A DNA stretch of 64,000 nt from positions 8,232 to 72,231 of the forward strand of contig CAVFXW010000001.1 in assembly GCA_963626675.1 (NCBI GenBank). Reading direction: 5' to 3'. Positions 39,381 to 56,493 of this stretch are shown here, in pieces (the stretch's first letter is position 1; each line of letters begins with the position of its first letter). The notes below the pieces were generated by a model, which ran no database searches, was not told where the DNA came from, and saw only the letters and a list, made by a program, of their open reading frames with translations. Made by a program: the position numbers and the translations under genes. The DNA comes from Clostridium sp. CAG:452. Its GTDB lineage: Bacteria > Spirochaetota > Spirochaetia > Sphaerochaetales > Sphaerochaetaceae.

Positions 39381-41579
39381 CTATTTTCTCTTAAGCTTGA
39401 TCTTCACCTTGTTCTTTATAATATAACAGTGGTGTATGTTCATGTCTCTCTTAAAGTCGTCGCCGATCGTCTTCTCAGTTATATCTTCAACATAGTAGGA
39501 TGCATAAATCTCATCATCCATTTTGAAGCGTCTATAGTTATTTGAGAAGATTAGCGTGCCTCCCGGAGAGAGGTGCATGGCAGCACTCTTTATAAGCTTA
39601 ACGTGGTCACGCTGTACATCGAATGTATTTCTTCGGCTCTTACTATTGGAGAAGGTCGGAGGATCACAGAAGATGAGATCAAAGCGGTCATATGTATCCC
39701 ATAGGTAGTCCATTACATCTGCTTCATAGAGATAGTTTCCCATCGTTGTAGACCATCCGTTAATTTTAATATTCTCCTCTAGCCATCTCAGGTATGTAGA
39801 TGATGTATCGACACTGACTGTGCTGAGTGCTCCTCCCTTTATGGCATTGAGAGTTGCTGTTCCTGTGTATGCAAATAGATTGAGAAATCTCTTGTTTGAG
39901 CTCATCTTCTGAATGAGTTCTCTAACCTTTCTATGATCGAGGAATACTCCAGTGTCGAGATAGTCGGTGAAGTTGACAAGGAATGTAACACCATTCTCGC
40001 GGGCAAGAAACATTCTGTTGTTTGAGGCCAGCTTTCTATATTGTTCGTTTCCTTTCTGTCTGCTTCTTTCTTTTACATAGATGTTCTCTACATCTATTCC
40101 TGTTGCTCTCTCTGTTGCAAGAATAAGTTCATCAAGTCTTCGTCTTGTATCTTCCTCCGGGATTTCCTTAGGGGCTTTATATTCACTTACCACTATCCAT
40201 TTTCCCATGTAGAAATCAATTGATGCCGCGTATTCCGGCATATCTGCATCATAGATGCGGTAGCACTCAACGCCTTCCTTTTCCATAAGAGGTTTCAATT
40301 CTTTAAGATTCTTTATGAGTCTGTTGTAGACGAATTGAGCGCCTTGAGAGAGCGCTGTGGAGAGCCGCAATTTTTTCTTCTCTTCACTTTTTCTTATGAG
40401 CTCTTCTCTCTCTTCGTCTGTAAATACAGAGTAGTGTGCAGCCTGACACTCTATGCCACCGTTAAAGAGCTTGTTTGTTCTTTCGGGTTTCATATCTATG
40501 TTACTCAAAAGATCGCTGTTACCTGTAAGAATCGTAGCCTTCCAGCCTTTGAATGTGCTCTGTAGAGTATCTCCGATTCTCTTATATAGACCTTCGATGT
40601 CGTTTACGGCCATTCTCTCGCCATATGGAGGATCTGTTACGATACATCCTGTTTCAGCTGGGGCTTTTTCCATCTTTGTAAAATCCTGAACAGAGAAGGT
40701 GATAAAATCATATACGCCGGCCTTAAGGGCTGCTGCCTTGCTTATCTCGACGGCAGTGCGAGAGATATCTTGAGCATAGATTTGGATATCTCTTTCCTTT
40801 ATTGCTCTTTCCCGTTTTTCTTTTGCTTCAGCGACTATCTTATTAAAGAGCTCCTCATCGTAGGACGGAAGTTTCTGGAATTGATAGAAAGTCTTTCTAA
40901 GTAATCCTGGTGCTGTCTCTGTTGCCATCAGGGCAGCCTCAATTGCAATGGTTCCTGAACCACAGAATGGATCGAAAAAAGGAAGTGGAGCATTATTGTC
41001 TCGGCTTTTCTTCCATTCGCTACGACATATAAGGGAAGAAGCAAGATGCTCTTTTAAAACGGCATCGGTCTGCTCGCTTCTGTATCCTCTCATGGAAAGA
41101 TTCTCTCCTGAGAAGTCTATATACCATTTTACTGTGTATCGTTCTATATGGACATGTACTGTCACATCTGGATTGAGTATTTCGATATTTGGTCTCTCTC
41201 TATCGAACTTCTCTCTTATCCTCTCCACTATTCCGTCTTTGACCTTCAATGCTGCATAGTGGCTGTTTGTTATATAAGGGCAATCCTGTGTCGTACAAGT
41301 AACCTTGAGTGTCTTTTGTGGCGTAAGATATTCCTCCCAAGGAAGTGAGAGAGTCGCTTGCTCAAGCTCTTTGTCATCTCTTACATCATCATCTTCATAT
41401 AGTCCCCATAGAAGACGTGAGGAGATACGTGTGTTAAATGTGAAACGATAGCCGAATTCTAGATTGCCTTCTATTTCGACTCCACTCGATGTTACCCTTA
41501 CACGGTCACATCCACACTTTCTCGCTTCATCTGCGATCAAGTCACCTTGGTTTGCTGCGCTCGTTGCAAAAAATATCAT
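39381..41579 (-). CDS. rlmL: Bifunctional 23S rRNA methyltransferase RlmKL (m2G2445/m7G2069)
   Basis: 732 aa. THUMP-containing N-terminal half with DPFCGSGTI and VTDPPYGER. The second class I MTase half has FCDPPTFSNSK. Confidence 0.85.
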   Translation of the reverse strand: MIFFATSAANQGDLIADEARKCGCDRVRVTSSGVEIEGNLEFGYRFTFNTRISSRLLWGLYEDDDVRDDKELEQATLSLPWEEYLTPQKTLKVTCTTQDCPYITNSHYAALKVKDGIVERIREKFDRERPNIEILNPDVTVHVHIERYTVKWYIDFSGENLSMRGYRSEQTDAVLKEHLASSLICRSEWKKSRDNNAPLPFFDPFCGSGTIAIEAALMATETAPGLLRKTFYQFQKLPSYDEELFNKIVAEAKEKRERAIKERDIQIYAQDISRTAVEISKAAALKAGVYDFITFSVQDFTKMEKAPAETGCIVTDPPYGERMAVNDIEGLYKRIGDTLQSTFKGWKATILTGNSDLLSNIDMKPERTNKLFNGGIECQAAHYSVFTDEEREELIRKSEEKKKLRLSTALSQGAQFVYNRLIKNLKELKPLMEKEGVECYRIYDADMPEYAASIDFYMGKWIVVSEYKAPKEIPEEDTRRRLDELILATERATGIDVENIYVKERSRQKGNEQYRKLASNNRMFLARENGVTFLVNFTDYLDTGVFLDHRKVRELIQKMSSNKRFLNLFAYTGTATLNAIKGGALSTVSVDTSSTYLRWLEENIKINGWSTTMGNYLYEADVMDYLWDTYDRFDLIFCDPPTFSNSKSRRNTFDVQRDHVKLIKSAAMHLSPGGTLIFSNNYRRFKMDDEIYASYYVEDITEKTIGDDFKRDMNIHHCYIIKNKVKIKLKRK

Positions 41580-42508
41580 TCTTTTCCCTCCGTGAAGAGC
41601 TCTTTCAATTGTTCTTCAGAGAATTTATATTCAGTGCCGCAATTGAAACACTGAAGTACAAGGGGAAATTCTCCCTTGAGTATCTCATCTTTTTCTTTTT
41701 GTGGAAGATTTACAAGATATCTTGTGAAGTTTTTTTCATTGCATGGGCATGAAAAACCTATAGGAGAACGGCCAAGATAGTCGACTCCAAGAGATGAGAA
41801 AGTTGAATCGACATATTCTCGGACGCTCATGCCACTTCCGATTTTTTTCGCCATATCATCCAATTGAGGCGAGAGTTCAGCGAGTTTATTCAATATGTTC
41901 TCTTTGCATAGCGGTAGGGCTTGCATCATTATGCCTCCGGAGCCCCATACGCGGCCGTATTTATCATAGTCGATGGAAAGGGCAAAGAGAGAGGAGGTTT
42001 GCTCCGACTCTCTGTAGTAGGCTGCAAGATCCTGTGCAAGGTGTCCGGTAGAAAGCATTACTTCTCCCGAAAATGGTGATTTTGATCCTTCAAGGATTTT
42101 TGTTATGCGAAGAAAACCCGGGCCGTATAGTGGGGAAGTGTCAAGAGAGGAGAGAGGCTTCTCTAGTGGTATGGGATTATTAACAAGATATCCTCTGACG
42201 GCACCACACGCCCATGCTTCTATATTCATACCCTTGATTGGGCCAGCACAATTGATGGTAAGAAGTATTCTGTCATTTCCTTTTACTTCACTGGAAAGAA
42301 GAGATCCTGCCGTATAGCCTTGGGAGAGAACATATGTTTCTAAAAGTCCTGTTTGGTGATTTGCTCTCATCTCGTTAATCATTCTTGTCGTGTTGACAGC
42401 ACTTAATCTTACTGAACCGTCTCCTACAAGAAAGATTTCTCTTCTGTCATCCTCTATTTTCTCGAGATGCTCTAAAAGTATATTGTCTTCAATTTTCTTC
42501 TTTATCAT
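41576..42508 (-). CDS. hslO: Hsp33 redox-regulated chaperone
   Basis: C-terminal zinc centre FSCPCNEKNF...LQCFNCGTEY (CxC...CxxC). 310 aa. 4-nt overlap with rlmL. Confidence 0.88.
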   Translation of the reverse strand: MIKKKIEDNILLEHLEKIEDDRREIFLVGDGSVRLSAVNTTRMINEMRANHQTGLLETYVLSQGYTAGSLLSSEVKGNDRILLTINCAGPIKGMNIEAWACGAVRGYLVNNPIPLEKPLSSLDTSPLYGPGFLRITKILEGSKSPFSGEVMLSTGHLAQDLAAYYRESEQTSSLFALSIDYDKYGRVWGSGGIMMQALPLCKENILNKLAELSPQLDDMAKKIGSGMSVREYVDSTFSSLGVDYLGRSPIGFSCPCNEKNFTRYLVNLPQKEKDEILKGEFPLVLQCFNCGTEYKFSEEQLKELFTEGKE

Positions 42509-42693
42509 GAGGATAGTTTAAAGAAAGAATGAACTATAGTTAAGTATTCCTTCTCATTTTAGATCTAGATATGGCCGTGTAATCTAAATTGATTAGTGTC
42601 TCAGTATTATATGACAAGCGTTCTTGAAAAAAGGGTGGTTGTGAAGATATGGGATGTGATAGACTCATAAAAACATCTTTAAGGAGATTTGAT

Positions 42694-42990
42694 ATGGAAA
42701 TAAAGAAAGAAAATAATGGAAAAGAGCTTACCCTTTTTATCAAAGGAAGACTTGATACTACTACTTCTCCACTTCTTGAAAGGGAATTAAAGGAGAGTAT
42801 AAGTGGAGTTGAGAAACTCATTCTGGATTTTTCGTTACTTGAATATCTTTCATCGGCAGGACTAAGGGTAATCCTTGCGGCCCAGAAGGTTATGAATAGG
42901 CAGGGTGAGATGATTGTGAGAAATGTCAACGAGACAATCAGCGAGATCTTCGAAGTTACAGGTTTTGTCGACATCCTTACAATAGAGTGA
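42694..42990 (+). CDS. STAS-domain anti-sigma-factor-antagonist-like protein (SpoIIAA/RsbV type)
   Basis: LTLFIKGRLDTTTSPLLEREL...LILDFSLLEYLSSAGLRVIL, with Ser in the phosphorylatable position, then VTGFVDILTI. The ATG at 42694 is preceded by AAGGAG. Confidence 0.85.
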   Translation: MEIKKENNGKELTLFIKGRLDTTTSPLLERELKESISGVEKLILDFSLLEYLSSAGLRVILAAQKVMNRQGEMIVRNVNETISEIFEVTGFVDILTIE

Positions 42991-43021
42991 GCTCTGATTA
43001 ATGCTATAGAGAGGAGGAAAT

Positions 43022-44743
43022 GTGGATTCACGTTTTCAATACAATGCATACAGATACTTTCTCCTCTGGGGTATATTCTCTTCTCTTGTTCTGACTCTTT
43101 CATGCTTTGTAGACGCTACACTTGTGGGAAGGCTAACAGGGAGCGACGGCCTTGCAGCATATAATCTTATAACTCCTGTATTTCTCTTATATGCGCTACT
43201 AGGCGTTACGATAGGAGTCGGCGCGAATGTCAGGGTGGTTAAACTTATCGGAGAAGACAAGAAAGAAGAGGCTGATGAAGTATTTCACAGTGCCCTTACA
43301 CTCGGTTTAATCGTATCGACTCTACTGCTTTTCCCCTTACTCTTTAAAAGAAAGTATGCATCATTTCTTGGCTTGACTGGTAGTTTGTATCCTCTCTCCG
43401 TAGGGTATCTTAGTACGGCGCTTCTAGCTTCTCCTGCATTTGTAATGTATCACATACTATCGGCCTCTGTACGCTCGGATGGCAATCCCCGTCTATGCTT
43501 CTGGAGTTCTCTTGTTGTGTGTTTAACGAACATTACACTCGATATCGTATTCATGAAGGTAATGAAAATGGGTATAAAAGGAGCCGCGATAGCGTTGTGT
43601 ATAGGAGAGACTCTTGGCGTTTTTACACTTCTCTCGCATTTTTTCAGAAAAAGAGGTCTCCTCACTCTTTCGTTAAAGCTACCTCATTTTACCTTTATCA
43701 GAACGCTTTTCTTGAATGGATGCAGCGTCGGCTCTGCATATATCTTCTCTGCACTTGTAATGCTGTTTTTTAATACGATGCTTCTTTCATACGGAGGTAC
43801 AAATGGTGCTCTCTATGTTGCTATATATGGCATAATATATACAATGAACACGACTGTGGCTGCTGTTTATGACGGTAATGGAATGGCAATGCAGAGTGTC
43901 ATTTCGTTTCTTACGGGGGAGGCGGACAGCGAGGGAATTATTGCTGTATTGAAAAGAGCTATTATCACAATGATTGTATTAAGTGTTGTGATGGTCATTC
44001 TTTTTTCTTCTTTTTCGTCTTGCTTAATCGCCCTCTTTGGCATTACGGGAAACGATGATGTATATGCGTCTTCTCGCGCATTGAGGATCTTTCTCATAAG
44101 TGCGATCTTTACTTCTCTGAATACTACACTTACTTCATTCTGGCTCAGTATAGGGAGAACGAGACTCGCATCTCTTATGTCCCTTATTAGAAACTGCCTC
44201 CTTATTCTTCTATTTGGCTTTATTCTTGTTCCTGGGTATCTTGTTGACGGACTCGGATTAACATATATAGCATCAGAGGCGTCATCTCTCTTAATTGCTC
44301 TTATTGTTCTTTGGAAAAGTCCATCGAGAGAATATATGAAGAAGAAGTTCGGTACTATAGAGAGTTCGTTTGAAAAGACTTATCTAATAAAGAAGGAGAG
44401 TATGGGTGATATTTCTTCGGACATTGAAAGGATAAGTAGAGACTGGGATATAGACTATAAGAGATCATTTATGATCAATTTTATATTGGAAGAAATACTT
44501 CTCAACATTATTAAGTTTGCATTGTCGGAAAATAGCAAAAAAGAATACTACATCTCGATAAAGATTATAGCAAAAGATGAGGATTTATGTCTCCGTATAC
44601 GCGATAACGTCAAAGAGTACAATCCCTTCGATTGTGGCGGCGATGAGATTGACAGTGGTGTCTTAAAATTAATAAAGAAGAAGACGAAGTATTTGGAGTA
44701 TCAGAGAAAGATGATCTTCAATTACTTCTACACGATAATTTGA
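43022..44743 (+). CDS. MATE-family transporter fused to a C-terminal RsbW/SpoIIAB-like HATPase domain (degenerate ATP lid)
   Basis: The first ~440 aa are a 12-TM MATE (VDATLVGRLTGSDGLAAYNLITP...). The last ~130 aa carry N-box-like LEEILLNIIKFA, then IRDNVKEYNPFD (G1 without Gly) and IDSGVLKLIKK (weak G2). GTG start after GAGGAGG. Confidence 0.75.
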   Translation: MDSRFQYNAYRYFLLWGIFSSLVLTLSCFVDATLVGRLTGSDGLAAYNLITPVFLLYALLGVTIGVGANVRVVKLIGEDKKEEADEVFHSALTLGLIVSTLLLFPLLFKRKYASFLGLTGSLYPLSVGYLSTALLASPAFVMYHILSASVRSDGNPRLCFWSSLVVCLTNITLDIVFMKVMKMGIKGAAIALCIGETLGVFTLLSHFFRKRGLLTLSLKLPHFTFIRTLFLNGCSVGSAYIFSALVMLFFNTMLLSYGGTNGALYVAIYGIIYTMNTTVAAVYDGNGMAMQSVISFLTGEADSEGIIAVLKRAIITMIVLSVVMVILFSSFSSCLIALFGITGNDDVYASSRALRIFLISAIFTSLNTTLTSFWLSIGRTRLASLMSLIRNCLLILLFGFILVPGYLVDGLGLTYIASEASSLLIALIVLWKSPSREYMKKKFGTIESSFEKTYLIKKESMGDISSDIERISRDWDIDYKRSFMINFILEEILLNIIKFALSENSKKEYYISIKIIAKDEDLCLRIRDNVKEYNPFDCGGDEIDSGVLKLIKKKTKYLEYQRKMIFNYFYTII

Positions 44744-44750
44744 GGTCGAG

Positions 44751-46169
44751 ATGGAAAATCTGTTCATTTTTCAGAACAATGATGAGATAGAAAGGCTTTC
44801 TGTACAGAACAAGCTTCTCTTTCCATATGAAAAGAAGGTTATGGACAAACTTTTCTTAGGGAGGAGCAATCTCTCCGTATTGGATATAGGTGCTAATGAC
44901 GGCAGTAAAACGTCCTCTCTTTTTTCAGATAGCAGAGTAGGAAGAGTCATTGCACTTGAATACAATGCACTTCTTGTGGAGAAAGCCGAGAGACAGAAAA
45001 AGGATGACCGTTTTTCCTTCTATACAGTAGATGTGGAGAAGGCTGATTATAAGAGCTTATTGAAGAGAGTGATGAAAGAGTCTTCTCTAAAAGGTTTTGA
45101 TATCATATACATATCATTTGTTCTAATGCATCTTAAGGAAAGCGAAGCGCTTCTCATCTCTCTTAAGGAATTTCTCAATTGTGGAGGAACTATCGTTATT
45201 ACGGAAGCTGATGACCTCTCGTCGCATCTTACTCCCGATGAAAATGGACTTCTTGAGACATTTCTTTCGATTCTCGATAAGGACAAGTATTCTGGTAACC
45301 GACGTCTCGGACACGATATTGAAAATATTGTGAAAAGTGCGGGATATGGGGATATAACTATCCACTGTGATGGCGTTTCGGCTTTTCCTGGGGAGGAGGA
45401 GAAGAAAAAAGATATCTATAAAACATTCTTTTCATATCTACCGGAGGATGTTGATATTCTTTTGAGTGAAGATGAAAAAAACAGTGAATACAGAGAATGG
45501 AAGAAGTGGATAGATTCGAATTATTTGTCACTCAAAGAGCTTATAGAGAGTCCTTCGTCCTCAATTTCCATGGGGATGAAGATACTTACTTGTCGTAAGA
45601 CGATTTTCCATTCTGTTCCTCTTGAGGAAAGTGAAATAAACTCAACTCTTCTTCTTATGGATGAATGTGTCGGTAAGAACCTTTACAATAAAGATGATCT
45701 ATCTAAGGCAATTAAATCTTGCGATGAGTTCTTTATGCTTTATAAGACTGAAGAGGGTGTCATAGGCGGATACATATATTACTTTCTTACCGATAAGGAG
45801 ATGCTCTCTTCTTCAGGTAAAATACCACGTAAGCAGTTAGACAGTGTCTATAAAGGCAATAAGTGCGCACGTATTCAATCCGTTGGAGTGAGAAAAGAGT
45901 ATAGTGGGTTTGGTCTTGGAACGAGGATGATCAAAGAGGCTCTTCTTGACAACAAAATGCGTGGTGTGGAGGCTGTATATTGTGTATGCTGGGCGCCAAA
46001 TGGAGAGGTTCCGCTTGCTTTCCCTCTCTATCAATCGGGATTTTCCCATCTCATGAAAATCAGAGACTACTGGGCTGAAGAAGAGAGCCTTGTCTGCCCG
46101 TATTGCTCTGGTCGCTGTCACTGCAACGCTGAAGTTTATTATAAAATATTGAAGGAGGAGTGTAGATGA
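44751..46169 (+). CDS. Class I SAM methyltransferase - GNAT acetyltransferase fusion with C-terminal CxxCx3CxC cluster
   Basis: MTase motif I VLDIGANDGSKTS and post-I VIALEYN. GNAT motif A IQSVGVRKEYSGFGLGTRMIKEAL. The tail is LVCPYCSGRCHCNAEVY. Confidence 0.7.
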   Translation: MENLFIFQNNDEIERLSVQNKLLFPYEKKVMDKLFLGRSNLSVLDIGANDGSKTSSLFSDSRVGRVIALEYNALLVEKAERQKKDDRFSFYTVDVEKADYKSLLKRVMKESSLKGFDIIYISFVLMHLKESEALLISLKEFLNCGGTIVITEADDLSSHLTPDENGLLETFLSILDKDKYSGNRRLGHDIENIVKSAGYGDITIHCDGVSAFPGEEEKKKDIYKTFFSYLPEDVDILLSEDEKNSEYREWKKWIDSNYLSLKELIESPSSSISMGMKILTCRKTIFHSVPLEESEINSTLLLMDECVGKNLYNKDDLSKAIKSCDEFFMLYKTEEGVIGGYIYYFLTDKEMLSSSGKIPRKQLDSVYKGNKCARIQSVGVRKEYSGFGLGTRMIKEALLDNKMRGVEAVYCVCWAPNGEVPLAFPLYQSGFSHLMKIRDYWAEEESLVCPYCSGRCHCNAEVYYKILKEECR

Positions 46170-48187
46170 AACTCAAGCTCTTACCCAAATTCATAATTTC
46201 ACTATGTGTTGTAGGTCTCGTTTTTATAGTGAGTGTCTCTCTTTTCGGTTATCTTACATCTAAAAGATATCTTGAGGAACTTTATGCAGAGCGTGTAATG
46301 ACGAACAGTAATACGATTGCTTCTCTTCTCGATAAAGAGGCTGTAAAGACTATCATTAGTGAAGGCGGGGAGAATACACAAGAGTACAAGACTATGTACA
46401 ATCTTTTCCAAGCCCTTAAAAAGGATGGTGATATTACATATCTATCTCTTGTTGTTCCCGGCAAGGACAGTGTTACATTTTACATAGATGCATTCGTTCC
46501 CGAGATGGGAGATAAAGAATCGGCTTTTCTTCCTTATGGGGCTGAGATTTTCTATAGAGATGCTGCCAATCCAGATGATCCTAACGACCTCGAGAAATAC
46601 TATGAGATATGGAATGCATATAAATTAAATAAAGGTCTCGATAAGCCACTTGTGACGGACAATAAGTATGGTTATAACTACACCGGCATTTCCGTTGTGC
46701 TCGATGAAAATGGAAAGGCCATTGCTGAGGTTCAATATATTCTGGACATGAGCGAGGTGAGATCATACCTCTTCTCATTCCTCAATAACATGATTTTGAT
46801 CTCATTTATAATAAGCGCCGTAACAATGGCTGCATACATTTTCTTTGTAAGAAAGATGGTAACTTTCCCTATTGGAAAGCTGACGAGTTTTACAGAGGAA
46901 ATAACAAAGACGAAAGATTTCGAGAATCAGAAAATAGAGATTAATACGGGGGATGAAATAGAGGCGCTCTCTTCTTCGTTTAATTTCATGCTTTTAGAGC
47001 TTGAAGAATATATAAAGAACCTTTCGATAGTTACACGAGAGAAGGAGAGGATAGGAACGGAACTTGATGTTGCACGTCATATACAGAGGAGCATGCTTCC
47101 GCACGCGATCCCTACATTACCTTGCCTCAATAAAATCGATATATATGCCACAATGACGAGTGCAAAGGAGGTCGGCGGCGACTTCTATGACTATTTTCTC
47201 ATCGATGATGATCACCTTGCCCTAGTTATGGCCGATGTTTCGGGTAAAGGAGTACCGGCTGCTCTCTTTATGGCGATAAGTAAGAGTCTTATTAAATCTG
47301 CTCTACAGAGCACCTTAAGTCCAAAAGAGGTATTAGAGAAGGTTAATAACCAGCTTTGTGAGAACAATGATGCAGGGATGTTTGTTACTGTATGGCTCGG
47401 TATACTCGATATAAAAAGTGGCGTTATGAAATGTGCCAACGCAGGACACGAGTTCCCCGTAGTTAAGCGCAATAACGGAAAATGGGAGCTCTATAAGGAT
47501 AAACACGGCTTTGTTCTTGCGGGCATGGAGGCATCGAAATACGTAGAGTATGAACTTAAATTCGATAAAGGCGATAAGCTCTTTGTCTATACCGACGGTG
47601 TTCCCGAGGCAACTGATGGTAACCTCGTCCTCTACGGGACAAAGAGAATGATAGACGCTCTCGATAGAACAGAGGGCCTATCTAGTCGTGAGAGCCTTGA
47701 GTATATTCAGAGTGACGTAAACAATTTTGTTGGCCATGTGGATCAATTTGATGATATAACAATGATGATGCTTGAGATAAAAGATTGTCCTCTTATAAAG
47801 GAGATTACCGTTACTCCGACACCAAAGTGTGTAGAGAGTGTCACATCATTTATTGAGGATATCCTATCTGATAGCGGGGCGCCATTTAAGACGATAGCAC
47901 AGGTGAATGTTGCAATAGACGAAATATTATCGAATATAATCTCTTACAGCGGGGCTGAAAAAGTGACTGTCAAATGTGCTTCTTCTCTCAGTGAGATAAA
48001 GATTGAGTTTTCAGATGATGGTAAACCATATGATCCGACTTCTTCTCCCGATCCTGATACCTCACTATCGGTGGAAGAGAGGAAGCTTGGAGGATTGGGT
48101 ATATTAATGGTTAAAAAGATAATGGACGATATAACATACATGTATAAGGAAAATAAGAACATCCTATCAATCAAGAAGGGCTGGTAA
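46166..48187 (+). CDS. Sensor PP2C (SpoIIE-type) phosphatase: TM - extracytoplasmic Cache-like domain - TM - HAMP - PP2C - C-terminal RsbW-like kinase domain
   Basis: Two TM segments flank about 170 aa. HAMP-like PIGKLTSFTEEI...IEALSSSFNFMLLEL. PP2C motifs EVGGDFYDY, LVMADVSGKGVPAALFM, YTDGVPEA and FDDITMMMLE. The kinase part has DEILSNII (N box), FSDDGKPYDP (G1) and GGLGILMVKK (G2). Confidence 0.85.
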   Translation: MKLKLLPKFIISLCVVGLVFIVSVSLFGYLTSKRYLEELYAERVMTNSNTIASLLDKEAVKTIISEGGENTQEYKTMYNLFQALKKDGDITYLSLVVPGKDSVTFYIDAFVPEMGDKESAFLPYGAEIFYRDAANPDDPNDLEKYYEIWNAYKLNKGLDKPLVTDNKYGYNYTGISVVLDENGKAIAEVQYILDMSEVRSYLFSFLNNMILISFIISAVTMAAYIFFVRKMVTFPIGKLTSFTEEITKTKDFENQKIEINTGDEIEALSSSFNFMLLELEEYIKNLSIVTREKERIGTELDVARHIQRSMLPHAIPTLPCLNKIDIYATMTSAKEVGGDFYDYFLIDDDHLALVMADVSGKGVPAALFMAISKSLIKSALQSTLSPKEVLEKVNNQLCENNDAGMFVTVWLGILDIKSGVMKCANAGHEFPVVKRNNGKWELYKDKHGFVLAGMEASKYVEYELKFDKGDKLFVYTDGVPEATDGNLVLYGTKRMIDALDRTEGLSSRESLEYIQSDVNNFVGHVDQFDDITMMMLEIKDCPLIKEITVTPTPKCVESVTSFIEDILSDSGAPFKTIAQVNVAIDEILSNIISYSGAEKVTVKCASSLSEIKIEFSDDGKPYDPTSSPDPDTSLSVEERKLGGLGILMVKKIMDDITYMYKENKNILSIKKGW

Positions 48188-48190
48188 AAG

Positions 48191-48661
48191 ATGAATGAAA
48201 ATCTGTTTCGTAAATCAAGTGTTGACAGGGTAAATTCCCCCGAAGAGCTCAATGACTACATCCGTGTCGCTTCTCCAAGCGTATGGCTTATTCTTTCTGC
48301 TATAGTTGCATTCCTCGTTGGAGTTGTAATCTGGGGAATATGGGGAAATATAGAGGTGACAGTAAAGGCCCCTGTAGTAGTAAAGGATGGTGTAGTGACT
48401 TGCTACGTAGATGATGTTTCATCTCTTGAGGAGGCCCTGGACGTTCGTATTGACGGAAAAATTGGCAGTATAAAGAGTATAAAGCGAACGCCGGTTGAGA
48501 TCACAGATGACTATGACCCGTATTTTCTTTATATCTCATCGTACTCGTCGGGATCATTTGCCTATCCAGTCACCGTTGAAATAAGTGGGCTTGAAGACGG
48601 AGTATACAGCTCGGAGATTGTGAAAGAGAGAATCAATCCAATCTACTTTATCATCCATTAG
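48191..48661 (+). CDS. Miniature HlyD-type (NHLM bacteriocin-system secretion protein-like) membrane-anchored protein
   Basis: LFRKSSVDRVNSPEELNDYIRVASPSVWLILSAIVAFLVGVVIWGIWGNIEV matches the characteristic N-terminus of NHLM/NHLP-system HlyD proteins. Only 156 aa. It starts 3 nt after the PP2C stop, and the next gene follows 9 nt later. Confidence 0.6.
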   Translation: MNENLFRKSSVDRVNSPEELNDYIRVASPSVWLILSAIVAFLVGVVIWGIWGNIEVTVKAPVVVKDGVVTCYVDDVSSLEEALDVRIDGKIGSIKSIKRTPVEITDDYDPYFLYISSYSSGSFAYPVTVEISGLEDGVYSSEIVKERINPIYFIIH

Positions 48662-48670
48662 GGGGAGATT

Positions 48671-50854
48671 ATGGAAAAGAAGAAGAGGTCTGCTCCTCCT
48701 ATAAAGGGTGGCGTTGCCAAAGTTCCTGTAGTTATACAGTTGGAGGCATTGGAATGTGGAGCTGCCGCTCTTACGATGATTCTTGAGTATTACGGTAAGT
48801 GGATTCCTCTTGAGAAGGTTCGTGCAGACTGTGGTGTCTCTAGAGACGGTTCGAATGCAAAGAATATTCTCAAGGCGGCACGCTCCTATGGCTTAAAAGC
48901 GAAAGGCTATAGATATGAGCCGGAAAAGCTAAAGGAGGATGGCGTCTTTCCGTGTATAATACACTGGAACTTTAATCATTTCGTGGTTTTATGTGGTTTT
49001 AAGGGAAATAAGGCCGTTATAAATGATCCTGCAAAGGGAACATACTCTGTTTCGTTTGAGACATTCGATAAATCATTTACCGGAATATGTCTCATGATGG
49101 AGCCTGGAGAGGATTTTGTCCCTGAGGGAAAAAAGAAGAGTGTAGCTTCATTTATAAAGAAAAAACTCAAGGGTACTGGTAGTTCATTCTCTCTCGTTGT
49201 CATTACGACTTTCATCTCATTTCTTATCGGCATCATAACGCCCGGATTTTCGAATGTCTTTGCAGATTATCTCCTCTCTGGAAAGAATATGGAATGGTTC
49301 ATGCCTTTCATGTACGGTATAACTGCAATATCGATCATACAGATAATAGTTGGGATAATACAGTCGGTGTATACTCTCAAGGTTAACGGAAAGATAGCGA
49401 TAGTCGCAAACAGCGAGTACATGTGGCATGTTCTGCGTCTTCCTATGGAGTTTTTCTCTGTTCGTATGGCCGGGGATATACAGGCGCGTCGGAGCCAGAA
49501 CGAGTCGATCGCTGGGACTATAATTAATACTTTTGCCCCTCTTTCAATTGAGGCTTTCATGCTTTTCTTCTACCTATTTGTAATGCTGAGGTATAGTATA
49601 GTATTGTCGTTTGTTGGGATTCTTTCGGTATTTTTAAATATGGCGGTGAGCTCATATATATCGAAAAAGAGAGTCAATTCCACTCGTGTTGCAAGTAGAG
49701 ATAACGGCAAGTTATATGGTGCGACGGTTGCGGGAATCGAGATGATAGAGTCGATTAAGTCCACTGGAGGAGAGAACGGTTTCTTCGAGAAGTGGTCGGG
49801 TTATCAGGCGAGTGTAAACTCCGGACAGGTGAAATGCACACGTCTTAATGCACTCTTTGGTCTCATACCTTCTCTAATAAGCATGCTTACCAATAATATA
49901 GTCCTATTGGGGGGTGTCTATCTCTGTCAGAATGGCGCATGGACAGTCGGTATGATAAGTGCGTTCTCCGGCTTTCTTTCCTCCTTTCTCTCTCCAGCAA
50001 TGCTCTTTGTCTCGGCATCGCAATCTCTTTTGGAGATGCGTACGAGTATGGAGAGGATTGAGGATGTTATGGAATATAAGACCGATATCCCGTACGCACT
50101 AGAAGGTGTAAAGGACGATGTAGAATACGATAAACTCAGCGGCAAAATAGAGCTTAGGAATGTTACATTCGGCTACTCACGTCTTGGAGAACCTCTTATT
50201 AAAGATTTCTCTATGACGCTTGAGAGAGGTCAGACTGTGGCCTTTGTTGGGCCATCTGGCTCGGGAAAATCGACATTGGGTAAGTTGATATCTGGGCTAT
50301 ATAAACCTTGGAGTGGAGAGATTCTCTTCGATGGAAAGCCTATAAGTGAAATAAACCATTCGGTATTCACCGGCTCAGTTAGCGTTGTGGATCAAGATAT
50401 TACGCTCTTTGAGGATACAATCGCCAATAATATAAAGATGTGGGACGACTCGATAGAGGACTTTGAAATGATACTTGCTGCAAGGGACGCCCAGATCCAC
50501 AGCGATATAATGCTTAGAGATGGAGGATACTCATATAAACTAATGGAGGGAGGAAAGGATCTATCGGGCGGACAGAGACAGAGGCTTGAGATAGCACGAG
50601 TACTAGCAGAAGATCCAACAATTATCATCATGGATGAGGCAACAAGTGCCTTAGATGCAAAGACGGAGTATTGTGTTGTCTCGTCAATTAGAAATAGAGG
50701 TATAACGACCATTGTTATCGCTCATAGACTCAGCACAATCAGGGATGCTGATGAAATCATCGTTCTCGACAACGGATTAGTTGTGGAGAGGGGAACTCAT
50801 GATGCTCTCTATAAGAAGGGCGGAGTTTATACTTCGCTCGTTTCCAACGAGTAA
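48671..50854 (+). CDS. Bacteriocin-processing ABC exporter with N-terminal C39 cysteine peptidase domain (NHLM ABC1-like)
   Basis: C39 catalytic residues in QLEALECGAAAL (Cys29), WNFNHFVVL (His) and INDPAKG (Asp). Six TM helices. Walker [10 protein letters not shown], signature LSGGQRQR, Walker B IIIMDEATSALD. Confidence 0.9.
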   Translation: MEKKKRSAPPIKGGVAKVPVVIQLEALECGAAALTMILEYYGKWIPLEKVRADCGVSRDGSNAKNILKAARSYGLKAKGYRYEPEKLKEDGVFPCIIHWNFNHFVVLCGFKGNKAVINDPAKGTYSVSFETFDKSFTGICLMMEPGEDFVPEGKKKSVASFIKKKLKGTGSSFSLVVITTFISFLIGIITPGFSNVFADYLLSGKNMEWFMPFMYGITAISIIQIIVGIIQSVYTLKVNGKIAIVANSEYMWHVLRLPMEFFSVRMAGDIQARRSQNESIAGTIINTFAPLSIEAFMLFFYLFVMLRYSIVLSFVGILSVFLNMAVSSYISKKRVNSTRVASRDNGKLYGATVAGIEMIESIKSTGGENGFFEKWSGYQASVNSGQVKCTRLNALFGLIPSLISMLTNNIVLLGGVYLCQNGAWTVGMISAFSGFLSSFLSPAMLFVSASQSLLEMRTSMERIEDVMEYKTDIPYALEGVKDDVEYDKLSGKIELRNVTFGYSRLGEPLIKDFSMTLERGQTVAFVGPSGSGKSTLGKLISGLYKPWSGEILFDGKPISEINHSVFTGSVSVVDQDITLFEDTIANNIKMWDDSIEDFEMILAARDAQIHSDIMLRDGGYSYKLMEGGKDLSGGQRQRLEIARVLAEDPTIIIMDEATSALDAKTEYCVVSSIRNRGITTIVIAHRLSTIRDADEIIVLDNGLVVERGTHDALYKKGGVYTSLVSNE

Positions 50855-50865
50855 GGAAGGATACT

Positions 50866-53049
50866 ATGGGTTGGTTTGATGAACAGATAAGAGAACGTAT
50901 ACAAAAAGATGATGATAACTTCGCAGATGCATTTGCTTCTCTTGCTTCTCTTGTTATGGGAAAGCGTATAACAAGGGCCTTGAATGAGGCTAAGTTTCAG
51001 ACGAAGTCCGCAATCGAGGAAATATTGAAATATTACCATATAAAGGCAGTTGAACTTCCCGATTGTGTGAAGGATGTAAACGATCAGCTTGAGTATTTAT
51101 TGCGTCCGAGCGGCATTATGAGACGGACGGTGAGCCTCAGCGACGGGTGGTATAAAGACGCTATAGGCGCGATGCTGGGCTCTCTTAAATCTGACGGCAC
51201 TCCTATTGCGCTTCTTCCCCATGGAACAAATGGATATAGGTATTTCGACAGCAGAAAAAAGAAGTGGGTGCGTGTTAATAAGGAAAGCGCCAAGGAGATA
51301 GATAGTGAAGCTATATGCTTTTACAAACCTTTTCCAATGAAAAAACTCGGCGTCAAGGATCTCCTCTTATACATAGTGGGATTGATGAATATTTCAGATT
51401 ATGTGGCTTTGTGTCTCATAACACTTGCTGTTTCCTTAGTCGGTCTTTTTACTCCGAAAATCCAAAGGCTTATTTACGGACCTGTGATAGAAGGCGGTAG
51501 CGCTGAGCTTCTATTTGCCGTATTCGGCTTCCTCATTTCAATCAGTGTTTCTCAGCTTCTTATCTCTTCTACGCGCTCTCTTATCATGGGAAGGCTATCG
51601 ACTAAAATGAATACAAGTGTGCAAGCAGCTGGGATGATAAGGTTACTCTCCCTTCCTGCGCAGTTCTTTAAGGACTACTCTGCCGGAGAGCTCTCGTCTC
51701 GTATGAATGCACTCAACTCTTTGTGCTCAGTGCTTGTAAGTACGATTTTTACGACAGGGCTCTCAAGTCTCTTTTCACTTATTTATATAACCCAGATGGT
51801 CCAATACGGGCCGCATTTGGTCATTCCGGGACTAATTGTCATTCTTGTAACTGTAATTTTCTCGCTTATTACTACGTTGGTTCAACTTAGGGTGAGTGAA
51901 AAGCAGCTTCTCCTCTCTGCTTCGGAGTCTGGGCTTGAGTATTCACTAATTACGGGAGTGCAGAAGATAAAACTCAGCGGGGCAGAGAAGAGAGCTTTTG
52001 CTAAATGGGCCGAGGCTTACACGGCAGAAGCGAGAGAGGAGTATGATCCACCGTTTTTCTTAAAGCTTAGCGGAGTATTTTCATCATGCATATCACTTGT
52101 AGGAACGATTGTAATATATTTCTTTACCATAAAGACTAATGTAAGTCTTGCGGATTATTATGCATTTAACAGTGCTTATGGCGCGGTGATGGGGGCATTT
52201 ACATCCCTTGTATCATTGTCAACAACGGCTGCAAGAATCAGACCACTGTTAAATATGGTGAAGCCTATAATCGAGACTGTACCTGAGACAGCACAGTCAA
52301 AAAGGGTGGTTACAAGACTTTCTGGTGCGATAGAACTTAACAATGTCTCTTTCCGTTACACCCCCGATGGGCCACTTATTCTTGACGATCTTTCACTTAA
52401 GATAAGGCCGGGACAGTATACTGCGATAGTAGGTGCAACAGGATGTGGTAAGTCGACTCTTATGCGTCTCATGCTTGGCTTTGAGACTCCGCAGAAGGGT
52501 GCCATCTACTACGATGGGATGGATCTTGCTTCTCTTGATCTCAAGTCATTAAGACGGAAAATCGGATCTGTAATGCAGAATGGGAAGCTCTTTCAAGGCG
52601 ATATCTACTCAAACATAGTAATAACAGCTCCATCTCTCGGCCTGGAGGAGGCATGGATAGCTGCAGAGAAAGCAGGGATTAAGGAAGATATAGAGAGAAT
52701 GCCGATGGGGATGCATACAATCATCAGCGAAGGAACGGGAGGTATTTCCGGTGGACAAAGACAGAGGATTATGATAGCCCGTGCAATAGCACCCAAGCCG
52801 AGGATTCTCATGTTTGATGAAGCGACAAGTGCACTCGACAATATTACACAGAAGATAGTTTCTGATTCACTTTCAAAGCTCAAGTGTACACGCATTGTAA
52901 TTGCACACCGTCTCTCAACAATAAAGGAATGTGACAGAATTATAGTATTGGACAAAGGTAAAATAGTTGAAGATGGAAAATATGATGAGCTGATTGCTAA
53001 AAATGGATATTTTGCATCTCTTGTTTCAAGACAGCGACTTGACGGATAA
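50866..53049 (+). CDS. Second ABC exporter with non-catalytic N-terminal peptidase-like domain (NHLM ABC2-like)
   Basis: N-terminal ~160 aa lack a catalytic Cys. PIALLPHGTNGYRYFD...EAICFYKPFP pattern as in NHLM-system ATP-binding proteins. Walker A GATGCGKST, ISGGQRQR, ILMFDEATSALD. Confidence 0.85.
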   Translation: MGWFDEQIRERIQKDDDNFADAFASLASLVMGKRITRALNEAKFQTKSAIEEILKYYHIKAVELPDCVKDVNDQLEYLLRPSGIMRRTVSLSDGWYKDAIGAMLGSLKSDGTPIALLPHGTNGYRYFDSRKKKWVRVNKESAKEIDSEAICFYKPFPMKKLGVKDLLLYIVGLMNISDYVALCLITLAVSLVGLFTPKIQRLIYGPVIEGGSAELLFAVFGFLISISVSQLLISSTRSLIMGRLSTKMNTSVQAAGMIRLLSLPAQFFKDYSAGELSSRMNALNSLCSVLVSTIFTTGLSSLFSLIYITQMVQYGPHLVIPGLIVILVTVIFSLITTLVQLRVSEKQLLLSASESGLEYSLITGVQKIKLSGAEKRAFAKWAEAYTAEAREEYDPPFFLKLSGVFSSCISLVGTIVIYFFTIKTNVSLADYYAFNSAYGAVMGAFTSLVSLSTTAARIRPLLNMVKPIIETVPETAQSKRVVTRLSGAIELNNVSFRYTPDGPLILDDLSLKIRPGQYTAIVGATGCGKSTLMRLMLGFETPQKGAIYYDGMDLASLDLKSLRRKIGSVMQNGKLFQGDIYSNIVITAPSLGLEEAWIAAEKAGIKEDIERMPMGMHTIISEGTGGISGGQRQRIMIARAIAPKPRILMFDEATSALDNITQKIVSDSLSKLKCTRIVIAHRLSTIKECDRIIVLDKGKIVEDGKYDELIAKNGYFASLVSRQRLDG

Positions 53050-53101: not shown

Positions 53102-53533
53102 ATGAATAATTTAGAAAATGATTTTATTGAAAAAGTAAAGAATGCGAGAAGTGTTGATGATATCATAAATATTGCACACGAGAATGGAATTGAAATTAGA
53201 AGAGAGCAGGCACAGTTCTATTTTAACAATATGAAACAAGGCGAACTAACAGATGATGAGATATCATCTGTCTCAGGAGGCGGTTGTAGTAGCAGTAGAA
53301 GTTCCGTATCCTCATCAAAGAGCGATTTACGCCTCGGTACAGTCGTCACTCTTAAAAACAACGGACATACGTTCTCCTCTTCTGCTGCTTCGACAATTTG
53401 TAGTAACCCGAATTGTGGAAGCAACACGTTTTATATTTTGAGAAAAATAAGCGGCACTGATTATTATCTAATGGAATGTACCAAATGTAAGTGGACCTAT
53501 AATGCTTTAAGAGACAATATAACTGCTATTTAA
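53102..53533 (+). CDS. RiPP/bacteriocin precursor with Nif11-type leader and double-glycine cleavage motif; 83-aa Ser-rich, Cys-containing core
   Basis: The leader is MNNLENDFIEKVKNARSVDDIINIAHENGIEIRREQ...GELTDDEISSVSGG (Nif11 pattern F.EKVK....S.....IA.E.G.EI, then ELTDDE..SVSGG). The core has Cys at residues 62, 100, 105, 126 and 129. It sits between the exporter and an rSAM/SPASM gene. Confidence 0.8.
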   Translation: MNNLENDFIEKVKNARSVDDIINIAHENGIEIRREQAQFYFNNMKQGELTDDEISSVSGGGCSSSRSSVSSSKSDLRLGTVVTLKNNGHTFSSSAASTICSNPNCGSNTFYILRKISGTDYYLMECTKCKWTYNALRDNITAI

Positions 53534-53578: not shown

Positions 53579-54991
53579 ATGTATTACGTAATTAATCCGA
53601 ATATAGGAATAAGGAGTTGGTGGCGCTCTCCGTACTCTTATTACATGAAAGGTGTGAGGAATGCGTTTAGACTTACTCAAGAAGAATTTGAATTCCTTTA
53701 TAAGTGTGATGGTATTACAAATCTTGAGGAAGGAAGCCTTTCGAATAGAATGCTCAATCGAGCCATGATTATACCTTGTAAGAAGGGAGAAATGTCTCTC
53801 TCCTCATGGCAGAGAAAGATCTGTGACAATCGATATTTTCCTGCCATGAATTGGATGATTACCGGTAAATGCAACTACAATTGTCTTCATTGTTTCAATG
53901 CGTCAGATAATGCGCCTCTCATGAGTGAGTTCACGCTTAAAGAAGCAGAGCGCCTGATGGATGAAGCCGAGGAATGTGGAATCAACGCCTTTACAATAAC
54001 AGGTGGTGAGCCCATGTGTCATAAATCTTTCTTTGATATAATCGAGGGGATATATAAGAGAGGAATGTTCGTCGAAGAGCTTAATACGAATGGCTATTAT
54101 ATAACCCAGGATGCTCTCGATTCATTCAAAGCTATAGGATGCCATCCTCTCATAAAGATATCGTTTGATGGAGTTGCCCACCATGATTGGCTGAGAAACC
54201 GCCCTGGCGCAGAGGAGGATGCCCTCAGGGCAATAAAACTATCTGTTGAAAACGGCTTTCGGGTCAAAGTTCAGAGTAATGTTCATCGCAATAATGTCGA
54301 AAGTATGATTACCTCTGCACACCTTCTTAACAAAATTGGTGTCAGCGAGATGCGCCTTATTCGCACAACGGAAGCACCACGCTGGATAAAGAACGGAGGA
54401 TCAAATACACTCACCCTTTCTGAGTATTTCGACAGAATGCTCTCTTTTATAGAAGAATATTCAGCCTCGAGAGACAAAATGGAGATCGACATATGGCAGC
54501 TCTTACATCTTTACCCAGAAAGTAAATCCTATAGGCCACGTGCCGTAGAGTGCATCGAGGAAGAGTATAGGGACTCTCTTCCTGTGTGTCGCGGAAACAG
54601 GGGTATGGTCGCTGTGGCTGCTAACGGGAACTTATTTCCATGCCTTCAGATGTCAGGATACTACGAAACGCACAATTGGAAACTGGGCAATGTGAAAGAG
54701 AACGGCCTCAAGAGATATCTTCAGCATGGAGATTACCTTGAAGAAGTATGTACTACGGTAAAGGATCTCAAGGACAGTAATGAAAAATGCCGCCGGTGCG
54801 AATGGTTTAAGTATTGCGTCGGAGGCTGCAGGGCTCTAGCTCTTCTATTCAGTGGCGACAAAAAGGGTAGCGATATATCAAAATGTCTTTTCTTTAAAGG
54901 CGGTTATATGGAGAAGCTCAAGAATGTAATGAAAGACTGGCGTGATGTAAGCGGAGTTATGAAAAGTAGAGAAAATGTGAACATTACTTGA
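53579..54991 (+). CDS. Radical SAM / SPASM-domain peptide maturase with N-terminal RRE-like extension
   Basis: CNYNCLHC (Cys98/102/105) rSAM cluster and TITGGEP. SPASM motif CRGNRGMVAVAANGNLFPC (GX4C) ... CRRCEWFKYCVGGC (CX2CX5CX3C) plus a trailing Cys. The first ~90 aa carry RLTQEEFEFLYKCDGITNLEE, which is PqqD/RRE-like. Confidence 0.9.
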   Translation: MYYVINPNIGIRSWWRSPYSYYMKGVRNAFRLTQEEFEFLYKCDGITNLEEGSLSNRMLNRAMIIPCKKGEMSLSSWQRKICDNRYFPAMNWMITGKCNYNCLHCFNASDNAPLMSEFTLKEAERLMDEAEECGINAFTITGGEPMCHKSFFDIIEGIYKRGMFVEELNTNGYYITQDALDSFKAIGCHPLIKISFDGVAHHDWLRNRPGAEEDALRAIKLSVENGFRVKVQSNVHRNNVESMITSAHLLNKIGVSEMRLIRTTEAPRWIKNGGSNTLTLSEYFDRMLSFIEEYSASRDKMEIDIWQLLHLYPESKSYRPRAVECIEEEYRDSLPVCRGNRGMVAVAANGNLFPCLQMSGYYETHNWKLGNVKENGLKRYLQHGDYLEEVCTTVKDLKDSNEKCRRCEWFKYCVGGCRALALLFSGDKKGSDISKCLFFKGGYMEKLKNVMKDWRDVSGVMKSRENVNIT

Positions 54992-56476: not shown

Positions 56477-56493
56477 GGAACAGAAAATAGATT

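Follow-up and report, generated by a model that had tools for sequence, protein, structure and literature searches.

A DinF-type MATE transporter with a fused, degenerate RsbW-like domain as candidate output of a partner switch beside a Nif11/NHLP peptide cluster

In this study, we describe a gene for a MATE efflux transporter that carries a C-terminal domain (CTD) of the RsbW/SpoIIAB anti-sigma-factor kinase type. It is located in a 64,000-nucleotide stretch of contig CAVFXW010000001.1 (positions 8,232 to 72,231, forward strand; assembly GCA_963626675.1), which is filed as Clostridium sp. CAG:452 and placed by GTDB in the Sphaerochaetaceae (Spirochaetota). The whole of this stretch is referred to as the window, and positions are counted from its first nucleotide. 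The CTD has lost most of the glycines that form the ATP lid in its kinase relatives, and the MATE-CTD gene lies second in a compact set of four genes that share one strand, the others specifying a STAS protein, a methyltransferase/GNAT fusion and a membrane sensor that unites a PP2C phosphatase with a canonical RsbW-type kinase. Based on these building blocks we tentatively propose, with slightly less than even confidence, that the CTD is the output receiver of the partner switch encoded in the same operon and that docking of STAS gates export by the MATE domain.

The MATE-CTD gene forms a single continuous frame of 573 codons starting with GTG (Table 1). Start and frame are taken to be correct, since a GGAGG motif lies 7-11 nt 5' of the GTG at 43022 and the homologues begin at the same MD(T/S)RFQY. 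An out-of-frame ATG at 43020 overlaps this codon (43020-43024), and the homologues match the GTG frame only. The first 433 residues are recognized by Pfam MatE (PF01554) in two stretches (1.5e-31) and by the NCBIfam MATE models PRK09575, TIGR00797 and FepA (1e-37 to 1e-32), and the hydropathy profile of the protein has 12 peaks. In a full-length AlphaFold2 model built from a 70-sequence alignment (mean pLDDT 83, pTM 0.80), residues 4-432 are helical throughout and most 10-residue blocks of the transmembrane (TM) part reach a pLDDT of 83-96. The best Foldseek match of this model is PfMATE (6fhz; E 4e-15, TMt 0.83), followed by DinF-BH (4lz6; TMt 0.77) and then VcmN, NorM and hMATE1. An acidic residue in TM1 is the cation-coupling position of the DinF/PfMATE subfamily; here Asp31 of TM1, which does not vary among 25 homologues and reaches at least 90% conservation in a set of 70, is a candidate for the structural equivalent of PfMATE D41. 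By profile and by model, residues 1-433 are thus a transporter of the DinF subfamily for which cation-coupled efflux is predicted. In public annotation, proteins of this kind appear as 'MATE family efflux transporter' or as 'polysaccharide biosynthesis C-terminal domain-containing protein', and the tail is ignored.

In the window protein this tail, residues 434-573, is non-membrane apart from one buried helix and contains 26 Lys and Arg residues. MATE C-termini are cytoplasmic, and the CTD should therefore be cytoplasmic as well, which fits its Lys/Arg-rich composition. In the AlphaFold2 model about 13 residues link it to TM12, and the CTD modeled in isolation reaches a pLDDT of 75 and a pTM of 0.67. 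Judged by column identity, no other part of the protein is as well conserved as the CTD (mean of 74%, versus 68% for the whole protein). Across 27 complete loci the CTD averages 58% pairwise identity, compared to 55.5% in the TM domain and 54% in the kinase domain encoded further downstream in the operon.

Four independent lines (profile search, hhalign, Foldseek and a joint alignment) establish that the CTD is, on profile and model evidence, homologous to GHKL domains of the RsbW/SpoIIAB type, with a predicted Bergerat alpha/beta fold. A profile built from 19 tails was searched against 1.84 billion representative proteins and matches 592 of them at E <=1e-3. Among the best 150 of these, 64 are proteins of 565-754 residues matched at their extreme C-terminus; nine such proteins were scanned, all of which contain MatE and eight of which also contain HATPase_c_2 (PF13581) at 33.7-61.9 bits, above the Pfam gathering threshold of 27.4 bits. 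When the CTD profile is aligned by hhalign with the PP2C-fused kinase domains of the same operons, a probability of 90.8% is obtained (E=1.2e-6, 75 columns), with a match that stops exactly at the start of the lid, while the STAS and PP2C controls remain at 1.1 and 0.1% probability, respectively. Within loci, the hidden Markov model (HMM) of the CTD matches the kinase domain, and the kinase HMM matches the CTD. Foldseek places the CTD model next to RsbW (6m37/6m36), SpoIIAB (1tid/1th8/1l0o), UsfX (8ih8/8jzt) and SiaB (6kko) with probabilities of about 1.0 and TM-scores of 0.5-0.6; of the top 20 matches (TMq 0.43-0.61), two are chains of the response regulator LvrC and all others are RsbW, SpoIIAB or UsfX chains. 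Exactly three positions are the same throughout the joint alignment of Bacillus subtilis RsbW, the operon kinase and the CTD, namely the Glu and Asn of the N-box and the Asp of G1. A search of PDB sequences with the CTD profile gave a sole, marginal match to the ATP-binding domain of VraS (E=0.029), which is consistent with a GHKL fold without being decisive.

Three short motifs define the state of the presumed active site (Table 1). Across 70 homologues, the N-box-like helix has an invariant E490 and E491 and an N495 conserved to at least 90%; B. subtilis RsbW and the operon kinase domain have their N-box Glu and Asn at the aligned positions. In GHKL kinases these two residues coordinate Mg-ATP. 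D528, the Asp of the G1 box, is invariant as well. The G1 and G2 glycines of GHKL enzymes form the ATP lid and contact the phosphates, and it is here that the CTD deviates: the G1 triplet reads D-N-V in 74 of 77 loci and includes a glycine in none, while the G2 remnant retains one glycine (IDSG/IDNG) or, in about 27% of loci, none (VDRA/IDNA). About 18 residues separate the G1 Asp from G2 in the CTD. This spacing is 23-25 residues in the operon kinase domains and, in RsbW, about 30. Relative to the working kinases used for comparison, the ATP lid of the CTD is shorter by 5-12 residues. The CTD thus has the N-box Glu/Asn and lacks both a DxGxG G1 box and a G2-glycine motif with a lid of full length. 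The PP2C-fused kinase domains of the same operons are intact in this respect, with ExxxN and DxG in 46/46 and GGLGI in 43/46. Most distant MATE-fused tails are also without the G1 glycine, and a minority retain RDDG. Since the glycines that form the lid and contact the phosphates are gone, kinase activity has likely been lost and we classify the CTD as a putative pseudokinase.

A preliminary description of this gene, made from the nucleotide sequence and its translations, had recognized a normal 12-TM MATE protein with a non-hydrophobic tail, the layout of an anti-sigma-factor kinase and the loss of most ATP-lid glycines. The Pfam/NCBIfam matches, the 12 hydropathy peaks and the similarity to PfMATE bear out the first of these points, and the composition of residues 434-573 the second. 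The kinase layout is found again in the HATPase_c_2 relatives, in the hhalign probability and in the Foldseek matches to RsbW, SpoIIAB, UsfX and SiaB, and its three motifs are indeed present at residues 489-500, 526-537 and 543-553. The loss of lid glycines can now be extended to 77 loci without a G1 glycine, with at most one at G2 and with a shortened lid. Its wording 'probably pseudo-kinase' stands as a fair deduction from the lost glycines and is not thereby proven. The same description had named two outcomes that would speak against it, a tail without a HATPase fold and a junction created by a frameshift. Instead, Foldseek and hhalign both return a GHKL domain, and the protein occurs identically in independent assemblies and has co-linear homologues.

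Indeed, the identical 573-residue protein is found in three independent assemblies (the NCBI metagenome-assembled genome (MAG) GCA_963644735.1 and two Logan read assemblies), and no stop or change of frame is present in the open reading frame at the junction between the MATE domain and the CTD. A search of 5.8 billion proteins gave 276 matches, the best 120 of which are all about 570-582 residues long, 48-67% identical and co-linear over 100% of the query. A scan with one genome per species reveals a widespread architecture, with 77 MATE-CTD loci in the two phyla Bacillota and Spirochaetota. Cultured carriers are Bullifex porci (Spirochaetota), Blautia faecis, B. glucerasea and Bariatricus, and MAG carriers include Oscillospiraceae, Faecalibacterium, Erysipelotrichaceae and Anaerovibrio. 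Taxonomy based on record titles is unreliable for the CAV... 'cleanbin' records, among which near-identical loci (L002 versus L003, and others) bear conflicting organism names such as Eggerthellaceae, Ruminococcus intestinalis, Comamonas kerstersii and Muribaculaceae, among others. The nearest named relatives of the operon belong to Bullifex porci and to Clostridia.

The partners of the MATE-CTD gene complete a recognizable signaling set. The STAS protein belongs to the anti-sigma-factor antagonist type (TIGR00377, 69.8 bits, above the cutoff of 53.45). Its stop at 42990 precedes the MATE start by 31 nt, the spacing reported earlier. Both a mechanical open reading frame call and the public record begin the STAS gene at ATG 42649 (113 residues, 42649-42990); its true start is probably ATG 42694, because this codon is preceded by an AGGAG ribosome-binding site and the homologues begin with MEIKK. 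The phosphorylation-site motif SSAGLR (S53, S54, A55, G56, L57, R58) is invariant in 27 paired loci, and at 68% mean pairwise identity STAS and the PP2C domain share first place in conservation within the operon. The methyltransferase/GNAT gene starts 7 nt after the MATE stop; comparison of its product with PDB and NCBIfam gave generic matches only, pointing to no particular substrate or cargo. The sensor gene overlaps the methyltransferase stop by 4 nt and encodes a protein of the order TM-extracytoplasmic part-TM-HAMP-PP2C-kinase, with Pfam matches to SpoIIE (1.1e-44), HATPase_c_2 (3.9e-18; 66 bits) and, weakly, HAMP. A phmmer search retrieves B. subtilis RsbW (6m36), and the kinase domain has the ExxxN, DxG and GGLGI motifs all intact. 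By their domain composition, STAS, PP2C and canonical kinase are here the components of a partner switch in which phosphorylation of STAS is predicted. Neither a sigma factor nor a diguanylate cyclase is encoded in the operon as an alternative output for STAS, and judged by synteny the MATE CTD is the only candidate switch output that the operon encodes.

The order MATE-CTD, methyltransferase(/GNAT), HAMP-PP2C is kept in about 90% of loci. The methyltransferase follows directly downstream of the MATE-CTD gene in 63/69 loci and PP2C is found downstream in 52/57, 42 of these 52 with a fused kinase. STAS lies immediately upstream in 30/62 loci, and its presence is associated with the kinase: PP2C is kinase-fused in 27/28 loci with an upstream STAS versus 13/26 loci without. 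This conservation of the operon supports the STAS-gating model. The mirror-tree approach adds little. It gives a partial correlation of distances of 0.25 for STAS and CTD, compared to 0.11 for STAS and TM domain and 0.08 for STAS and kinase; owing to its weakness and to confounding by phylogeny, we do not take this signal to indicate contact. On the opposite strand, upstream of the operon, genes for an RlmL/K-type rRNA methyltransferase and Hsp33 are syntenic with the operon in its closest relatives only (L002, L003, L006, L007) and therefore mark the edge of the conserved cluster. A promoter and terminator scan of positions 42300-49300 showed no enrichment over shuffled sequences and is silent on the operon boundaries; an Rfam scan of the whole window gave no match. 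A variation on the common arrangement is seen in an Anaerovibrio MAG (L053:3044-6525), where two tandem MATE genes, each with an RsbW-like CTD, lie upstream of the methyltransferase/GNAT and PP2C-kinase genes.

According to the model we propose, the CTD would be a duplicated, catalytically degenerate RsbW-type anti-sigma-kinase domain placed on a DinF-type MATE exporter. An extracytoplasmic cue would shift the TM-HAMP-PP2C-kinase sensor between its phosphatase and kinase activities, and the balance between both would set the phosphorylation of STAS at the conserved serine of the SSAGLR motif. Unphosphorylated STAS would bind the CTD as RsbV binds RsbW. Since the CTD is proposed to be unable to phosphorylate STAS, this complex would persist until the kinase domain of the sensor acts. 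Because the CTD sits about 13 residues from TM12, occupancy by STAS would bias the transport cycle: binding or release would act on the conformational, alternating-access cycle of the MATE C-lobe, turning export on or off. The cargo would probably be a product or by-product of the methyltransferase/GNAT protein and the adjoining Nif11/NHLP cluster for peptides that are made on ribosomes and modified after translation (RiPPs), transported for product export or for self-protection.

Several observations weigh against this proposal. STAS is adjacent in about half of the loci, compared to about 90% for PP2C. Five Blautia-type loci have an orphan MATE-CTD gene among unrelated genes, with no switch genes within 6 kb, and the Bariatricus, L037 and L060 loci contain PP2C with neither STAS nor kinase nearby. 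Among eight distantly related MATE-HATPase_c_2 loci with informative flanks, STAS is present in one and SpoIIE in three; as these distant loci are mostly devoid of STAS, the ancestral role of the CTD may not need it. With respect to the domain itself, the window protein scores under the gathering threshold of Pfam HATPase_c_2 (18.2 bits for the full-length protein; 22.0 bits, E=1.7e-4, for the isolated tail) and the last 40 or so residues of the CTD are modeled at low confidence (pLDDT 30-57). Finally, with the N-box Glu/Asn and the G1 Asp kept, nucleotide binding or residual catalysis may be conceivable.

A first alternative is a role of the CTD that resembles that of RsbT, the HATPase_c_2 paralogue that activates the PP2C phosphatase RsbU in Bacillus. 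Here, the CTD would bind and regulate the HAMP-PP2C sensor, the transporter would be a co-sensor that reports substrate flux to the phosphatase, and STAS, where present, would act elsewhere. We regard this as unlikely, although it is the strongest competitor of the STAS-gating model. PP2C is the most constant neighbor of the MATE-CTD gene (52/57 loci versus 30/62 for STAS), the MATE-CTD protein and the sensor are both membrane-anchored and could thus meet, and a Bariatricus locus (L031) and a distant one (P0133) have kept MATE-CTD, acetyltransferase and PP2C without STAS or kinase. Yet the operon offers STAS no other output, be it a sigma factor or a diguanylate cyclase, the sensor has a HAMP domain instead of the N-terminal RsbT-binding domain of the RsbU type, and there are orphan MATE-CTD genes without PP2C nearby.

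A second alternative starts from the retained active-site residues and gives the CTD a working nucleotide site, either as a weak Ser kinase acting on STAS or the transporter, or as an ATP/ADP sensor that couples export to energy. The invariance or near-invariance within the subfamily of the N-box Glu/Asn and of the adenine-binding G1 Asp, which are also shared with RsbW, speaks for such a module, as does the RDDG kept by a minority of distant MATE-CTDs; several distant MATE-CTDs pass the HATPase_c_2 threshold with full-length matches. In loci where PP2C has no kinase domain, the CTD is the sole GHKL domain in the cluster. In six loci (L030, L031, L034, L037, L060 and L070, from Bariatricus, Solobacterium and others), HAMP-PP2C has no C-terminal kinase domain and no STAS lies within 6 kb, and the MATE tails have the same conserved motifs. 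This interpretation appears improbable to us, given that a G1 glycine is absent from all 77 loci, that G2 has at most one glycine in a lid shortened by 5-12 residues and that the operon already encodes a canonical kinase domain.

Equally improbable in our view is a purely structural CTD that mediates dimerization or assembly, or tethers the transporter to an export machinery, with the switch genes as mere neighbors. In its favor, RsbW and SpoIIAB are obligate dimers, many MATE-HATPase_c_2 genes have no switch genes nearby, and the constant theme of the wider family is the natural-product cluster and not STAS. A pure scaffold would have no need of the catalytic-site Glu, Asn and Asp that have been kept, and the order STAS-MATE-methyltransferase-PP2C is tight and conserved in two phyla, with STAS among the most conserved proteins. 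An artificial joining of a MATE gene and a small RsbW-like gene by a frameshift is next to impossible, being refuted by the three assemblies, at least 120 full-length homologues and the 77 loci, and no point in favor of a frameshift or assembly artefact was found.

Two aspects were missing from the preliminary description: the wide spread of the architecture and the fact that the operon runs straight into a Nif11/NHLP RiPP cluster. This cluster begins four nt after the stop of the PP2C-kinase gene, on the same strand, with an export cassette of three genes. Such a three-gene cassette has been described for NHLP/Nif11 RiPPs in a paper that makes no mention of MATE, STAS or SpoIIE (PMC2887384). 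The first gene of the cassette specifies a protein that resembles just the N-terminus of the NHLP secretion protein (TIGR03794), and the precursor candidate that follows the cassette has a leader ending in SVSGGG and a Cys/Ser-rich core. In 16 related loci the 156-residue protein is likewise encoded after the PP2C-kinase gene; for the C39-peptidase ABC gene, at 57% identity or more, this applies to about 17, including Bullifex porci. Further downstream, the genes located after the radical S-adenosylmethionine (SAM) maturase look like a tripartite efflux set, and the occurrence of OEP/MacAB-type genes in the window suggests a diderm host.

The link with natural products extends to the distant MATE-HATPase_c_2 genes. 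Three of them are located beside non-ribosomal peptide synthetase (NRPS) genes (P0154, P0188, P0249) and two beside GH3 amido-synthetase genes (P0219, P0249). P0133 adjoins an acetyltransferase gene and a SpoIIE gene, P0156 adjoins SpoIIE and HATPase_c_2 genes, and P0154 (locus L081) has a divergent STAS-HATPase_c_2-SpoIIE trio next to it, plus a phosphopantetheinyl transferase (PPTase). The loci of P0154 (L081) and P0188 (L089) include multi-module NRPS genes and have in common an unannotated protein of about 452 residues. P0249 (754 residues; L082:6001-8265) is a MATE protein that bears HATPase_c_2 twice in tandem. Its cluster also contains a GT2 glycosyltransferase, a GH3 amido-synthetase, an APH-type kinase and an NRPS module. 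It is possible, though we hold this broader view a shade more tentatively than the STAS-gating model itself, that the MATE-HATPase_c_2 proteins form a large, unrecognized class of natural-product exporters, switched post-translationally by docking of phospho-regulated STAS or, in some lineages, of a PP2C sensor on the pseudokinase domain.

Table 1. Position of the MATE-CTD gene, its domains and motifs, and the neighboring genes in the window
Feature	Position	Strand	Description and basis
RlmL/K-type rRNA methyltransferase and Hsp33 genes	39381-42508	-	
STAS protein, anti-sigma-factor antagonist type	42694-42990	+	98 aa; Pfam STAS 5.8e-15
MATE-CTD open reading frame	43022-44743	+	573 aa; GTG start; single continuous frame
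MATE transporter domain, DinF/PfMATE type	43022-44320	+	residues 1-433; 12 TM helices; Pfam, NCBIfam, Foldseek
CTD, degenerate RsbW/SpoIIAB-type GHKL (HATPase_c_2-like)	44321-44743	+	residues 434-573 (~140 aa); profiles, fold
N-box-like helix LEEILLNIIKFA	44486-44521	+	residues 489-500; aligns with RsbW N-box
G1-box remnant IRDNVKEYNPFD	44597-44632	+	residues 526-537; Asp kept, glycines lost
G2-box/lid remnant IDSGVLKLIKK	44648-44680	+	residues 543-553; one Gly
Class I SAM methyltransferase/GNAT acetyltransferase fusion	44751-46169	+	472 aa; Pfam Methyltransf_31/23/12/11, Acetyltransf_1
Membrane sensor, TM-extracytoplasmic-TM-HAMP-PP2C-kinase	46166-48187	+	673 aa; Pfam
HAMP domain of sensor	46868-47008	+	
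PP2C/SpoIIE phosphatase domain of sensor	47204-47779	+	
Canonical RsbW-type kinase domain of sensor	47816-48178	+	
NHLP/Nif11-type peptide export cassette	48191-53049	+	three genes; TIGR models
HlyD-N-terminal-like protein	48191-48661	+	156 aa; TIGR03794, positions 1-52 only
NHLM_micro_ABC1, C39-peptidase ABC exporter	48671-50854	+	TIGR03796 887 bits (cutoff 853)
NHLM_micro_ABC2	50866-53049	+	TIGR03797 747 bits (cutoff 709)
Nif11-like-leader RiPP precursor candidate	53102-53533	+	143 aa; TIGR03798 24.9 bits, under the 32.3 cutoff
Radical SAM/SPASM maturase	53579-54991	+	Pfam Radical_SAM, SPASM
TolC-like outer-membrane factor, HlyD-type membrane-fusion protein, MacB-type ABC (ATPase and permease)	55055-59436	+	

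The usual view of MATE transporters is that of stand-alone, cation-coupled pumps under transcriptional regulation. If the proposed model is true, the system described here would be the first partner switch with a transporter as output and the first MATE protein known to have a dedicated cytoplasmic regulatory domain, and export related to secondary metabolites or peptides would be gated within seconds by an extracytoplasmic cue. In addition, it would provide a compact four-gene system in which a binding event is transmitted by a pseudo-GHKL domain to a membrane transporter. Members of the MATE-CTD family are conserved across gut Clostridia and Spirochaetota, and RiPP and NRPS clusters are a recurrent setting for them. 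A dedicated CTD profile would improve both their annotation and the mining of biosynthetic gene clusters.

With regard to precedents, a full-text literature search with most subscription journals outside its coverage returned no report on MatE combined with HATPase_c_2 or on a MATE protein with STAS or SpoIIE, in agreement with the earlier statement that no characterized MATE transporter regulated by a fused partner-switching domain is known. No transporter was found among the described targets of partner switching, though non-sigma outputs are increasingly known. Likewise, the solved MATE structures matched by Foldseek all have 406-486 residues and none has a C-terminal globular or regulatory domain.

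The closest counterparts of the CTD are RsbW, SpoIIAB and UsfX, with which it shares the predicted fold, the N-box Glu/Asn, the G1 Asp and the genomic link to STAS and PP2C. In contrast to these proteins, the CTD forms the C-terminal extension of a transporter with 12 TM helices, has lost all G1 glycines, most or all G2 glycines and part of the lid, and has no sigma factor nearby. The RsbT-RsbU pair of B. subtilis, in which a HATPase_c_2 protein binds a PP2C phosphatase, would be the analogue for a CTD acting on the sensor. RsbT differs in being a soluble protein with kinase activity that the stressosome releases, the CTD being membrane-tethered and degenerate, and the PP2C protein carries HAMP and not the N-domain of RsbU. 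The TM domain superposes on PfMATE, DinF-BH and VcmN with a TM-score of up to 0.83, and a parallel at the level of gene context is found in ClbM, the MATE transporter of the colibactin cluster, which like the MATE-CTD gene belongs to a natural-product cluster.

Coupling of a membrane transporter to one half of a STAS/GHKL-kinase pair has precedents as well. MlaB is a STAS regulator of the ABC transporter MlaFEDB. In SLC26/SulP anion transporters, a STAS domain is carried at the C-terminus (PMC8256260). The half that is fused in the MATE-CTD protein is the RsbW-like partner and not STAS, and the MATE/MOP fold is unrelated to these transporters. The sensor resembles HsbR of Pseudomonas aeruginosa, which unites PP2C and kinase in one protein and controls the STAS protein HsbA, with FlgM and the diguanylate cyclase HsbD as targets (PMC6482189), and SypE of Vibrio fischeri, a bifunctional PP2C-kinase that sets the state of the single-domain STAS protein SypA in a non-sigma system in which the target of SypA is unknown (PMC10120452). 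The 673-residue sensor has the same two enzymatic domains, PP2C and an RsbW-type kinase, but receives its input through a TM/HAMP module and not through a receiver domain, and its proposed target is a pseudokinase domain borne by a transporter. The architecture is widespread and, in relatives, visible to Pfam, and is thus new as biology and not as a database object. Both the components and the logic, i.e., MATE pumps and partner switching without a sigma factor, are known from the systems above; their combination in a pump that includes a pseudo-RsbW domain, is conserved with STAS/PP2C genes and lies in RiPP and NRPS clusters was not found in the literature searched.

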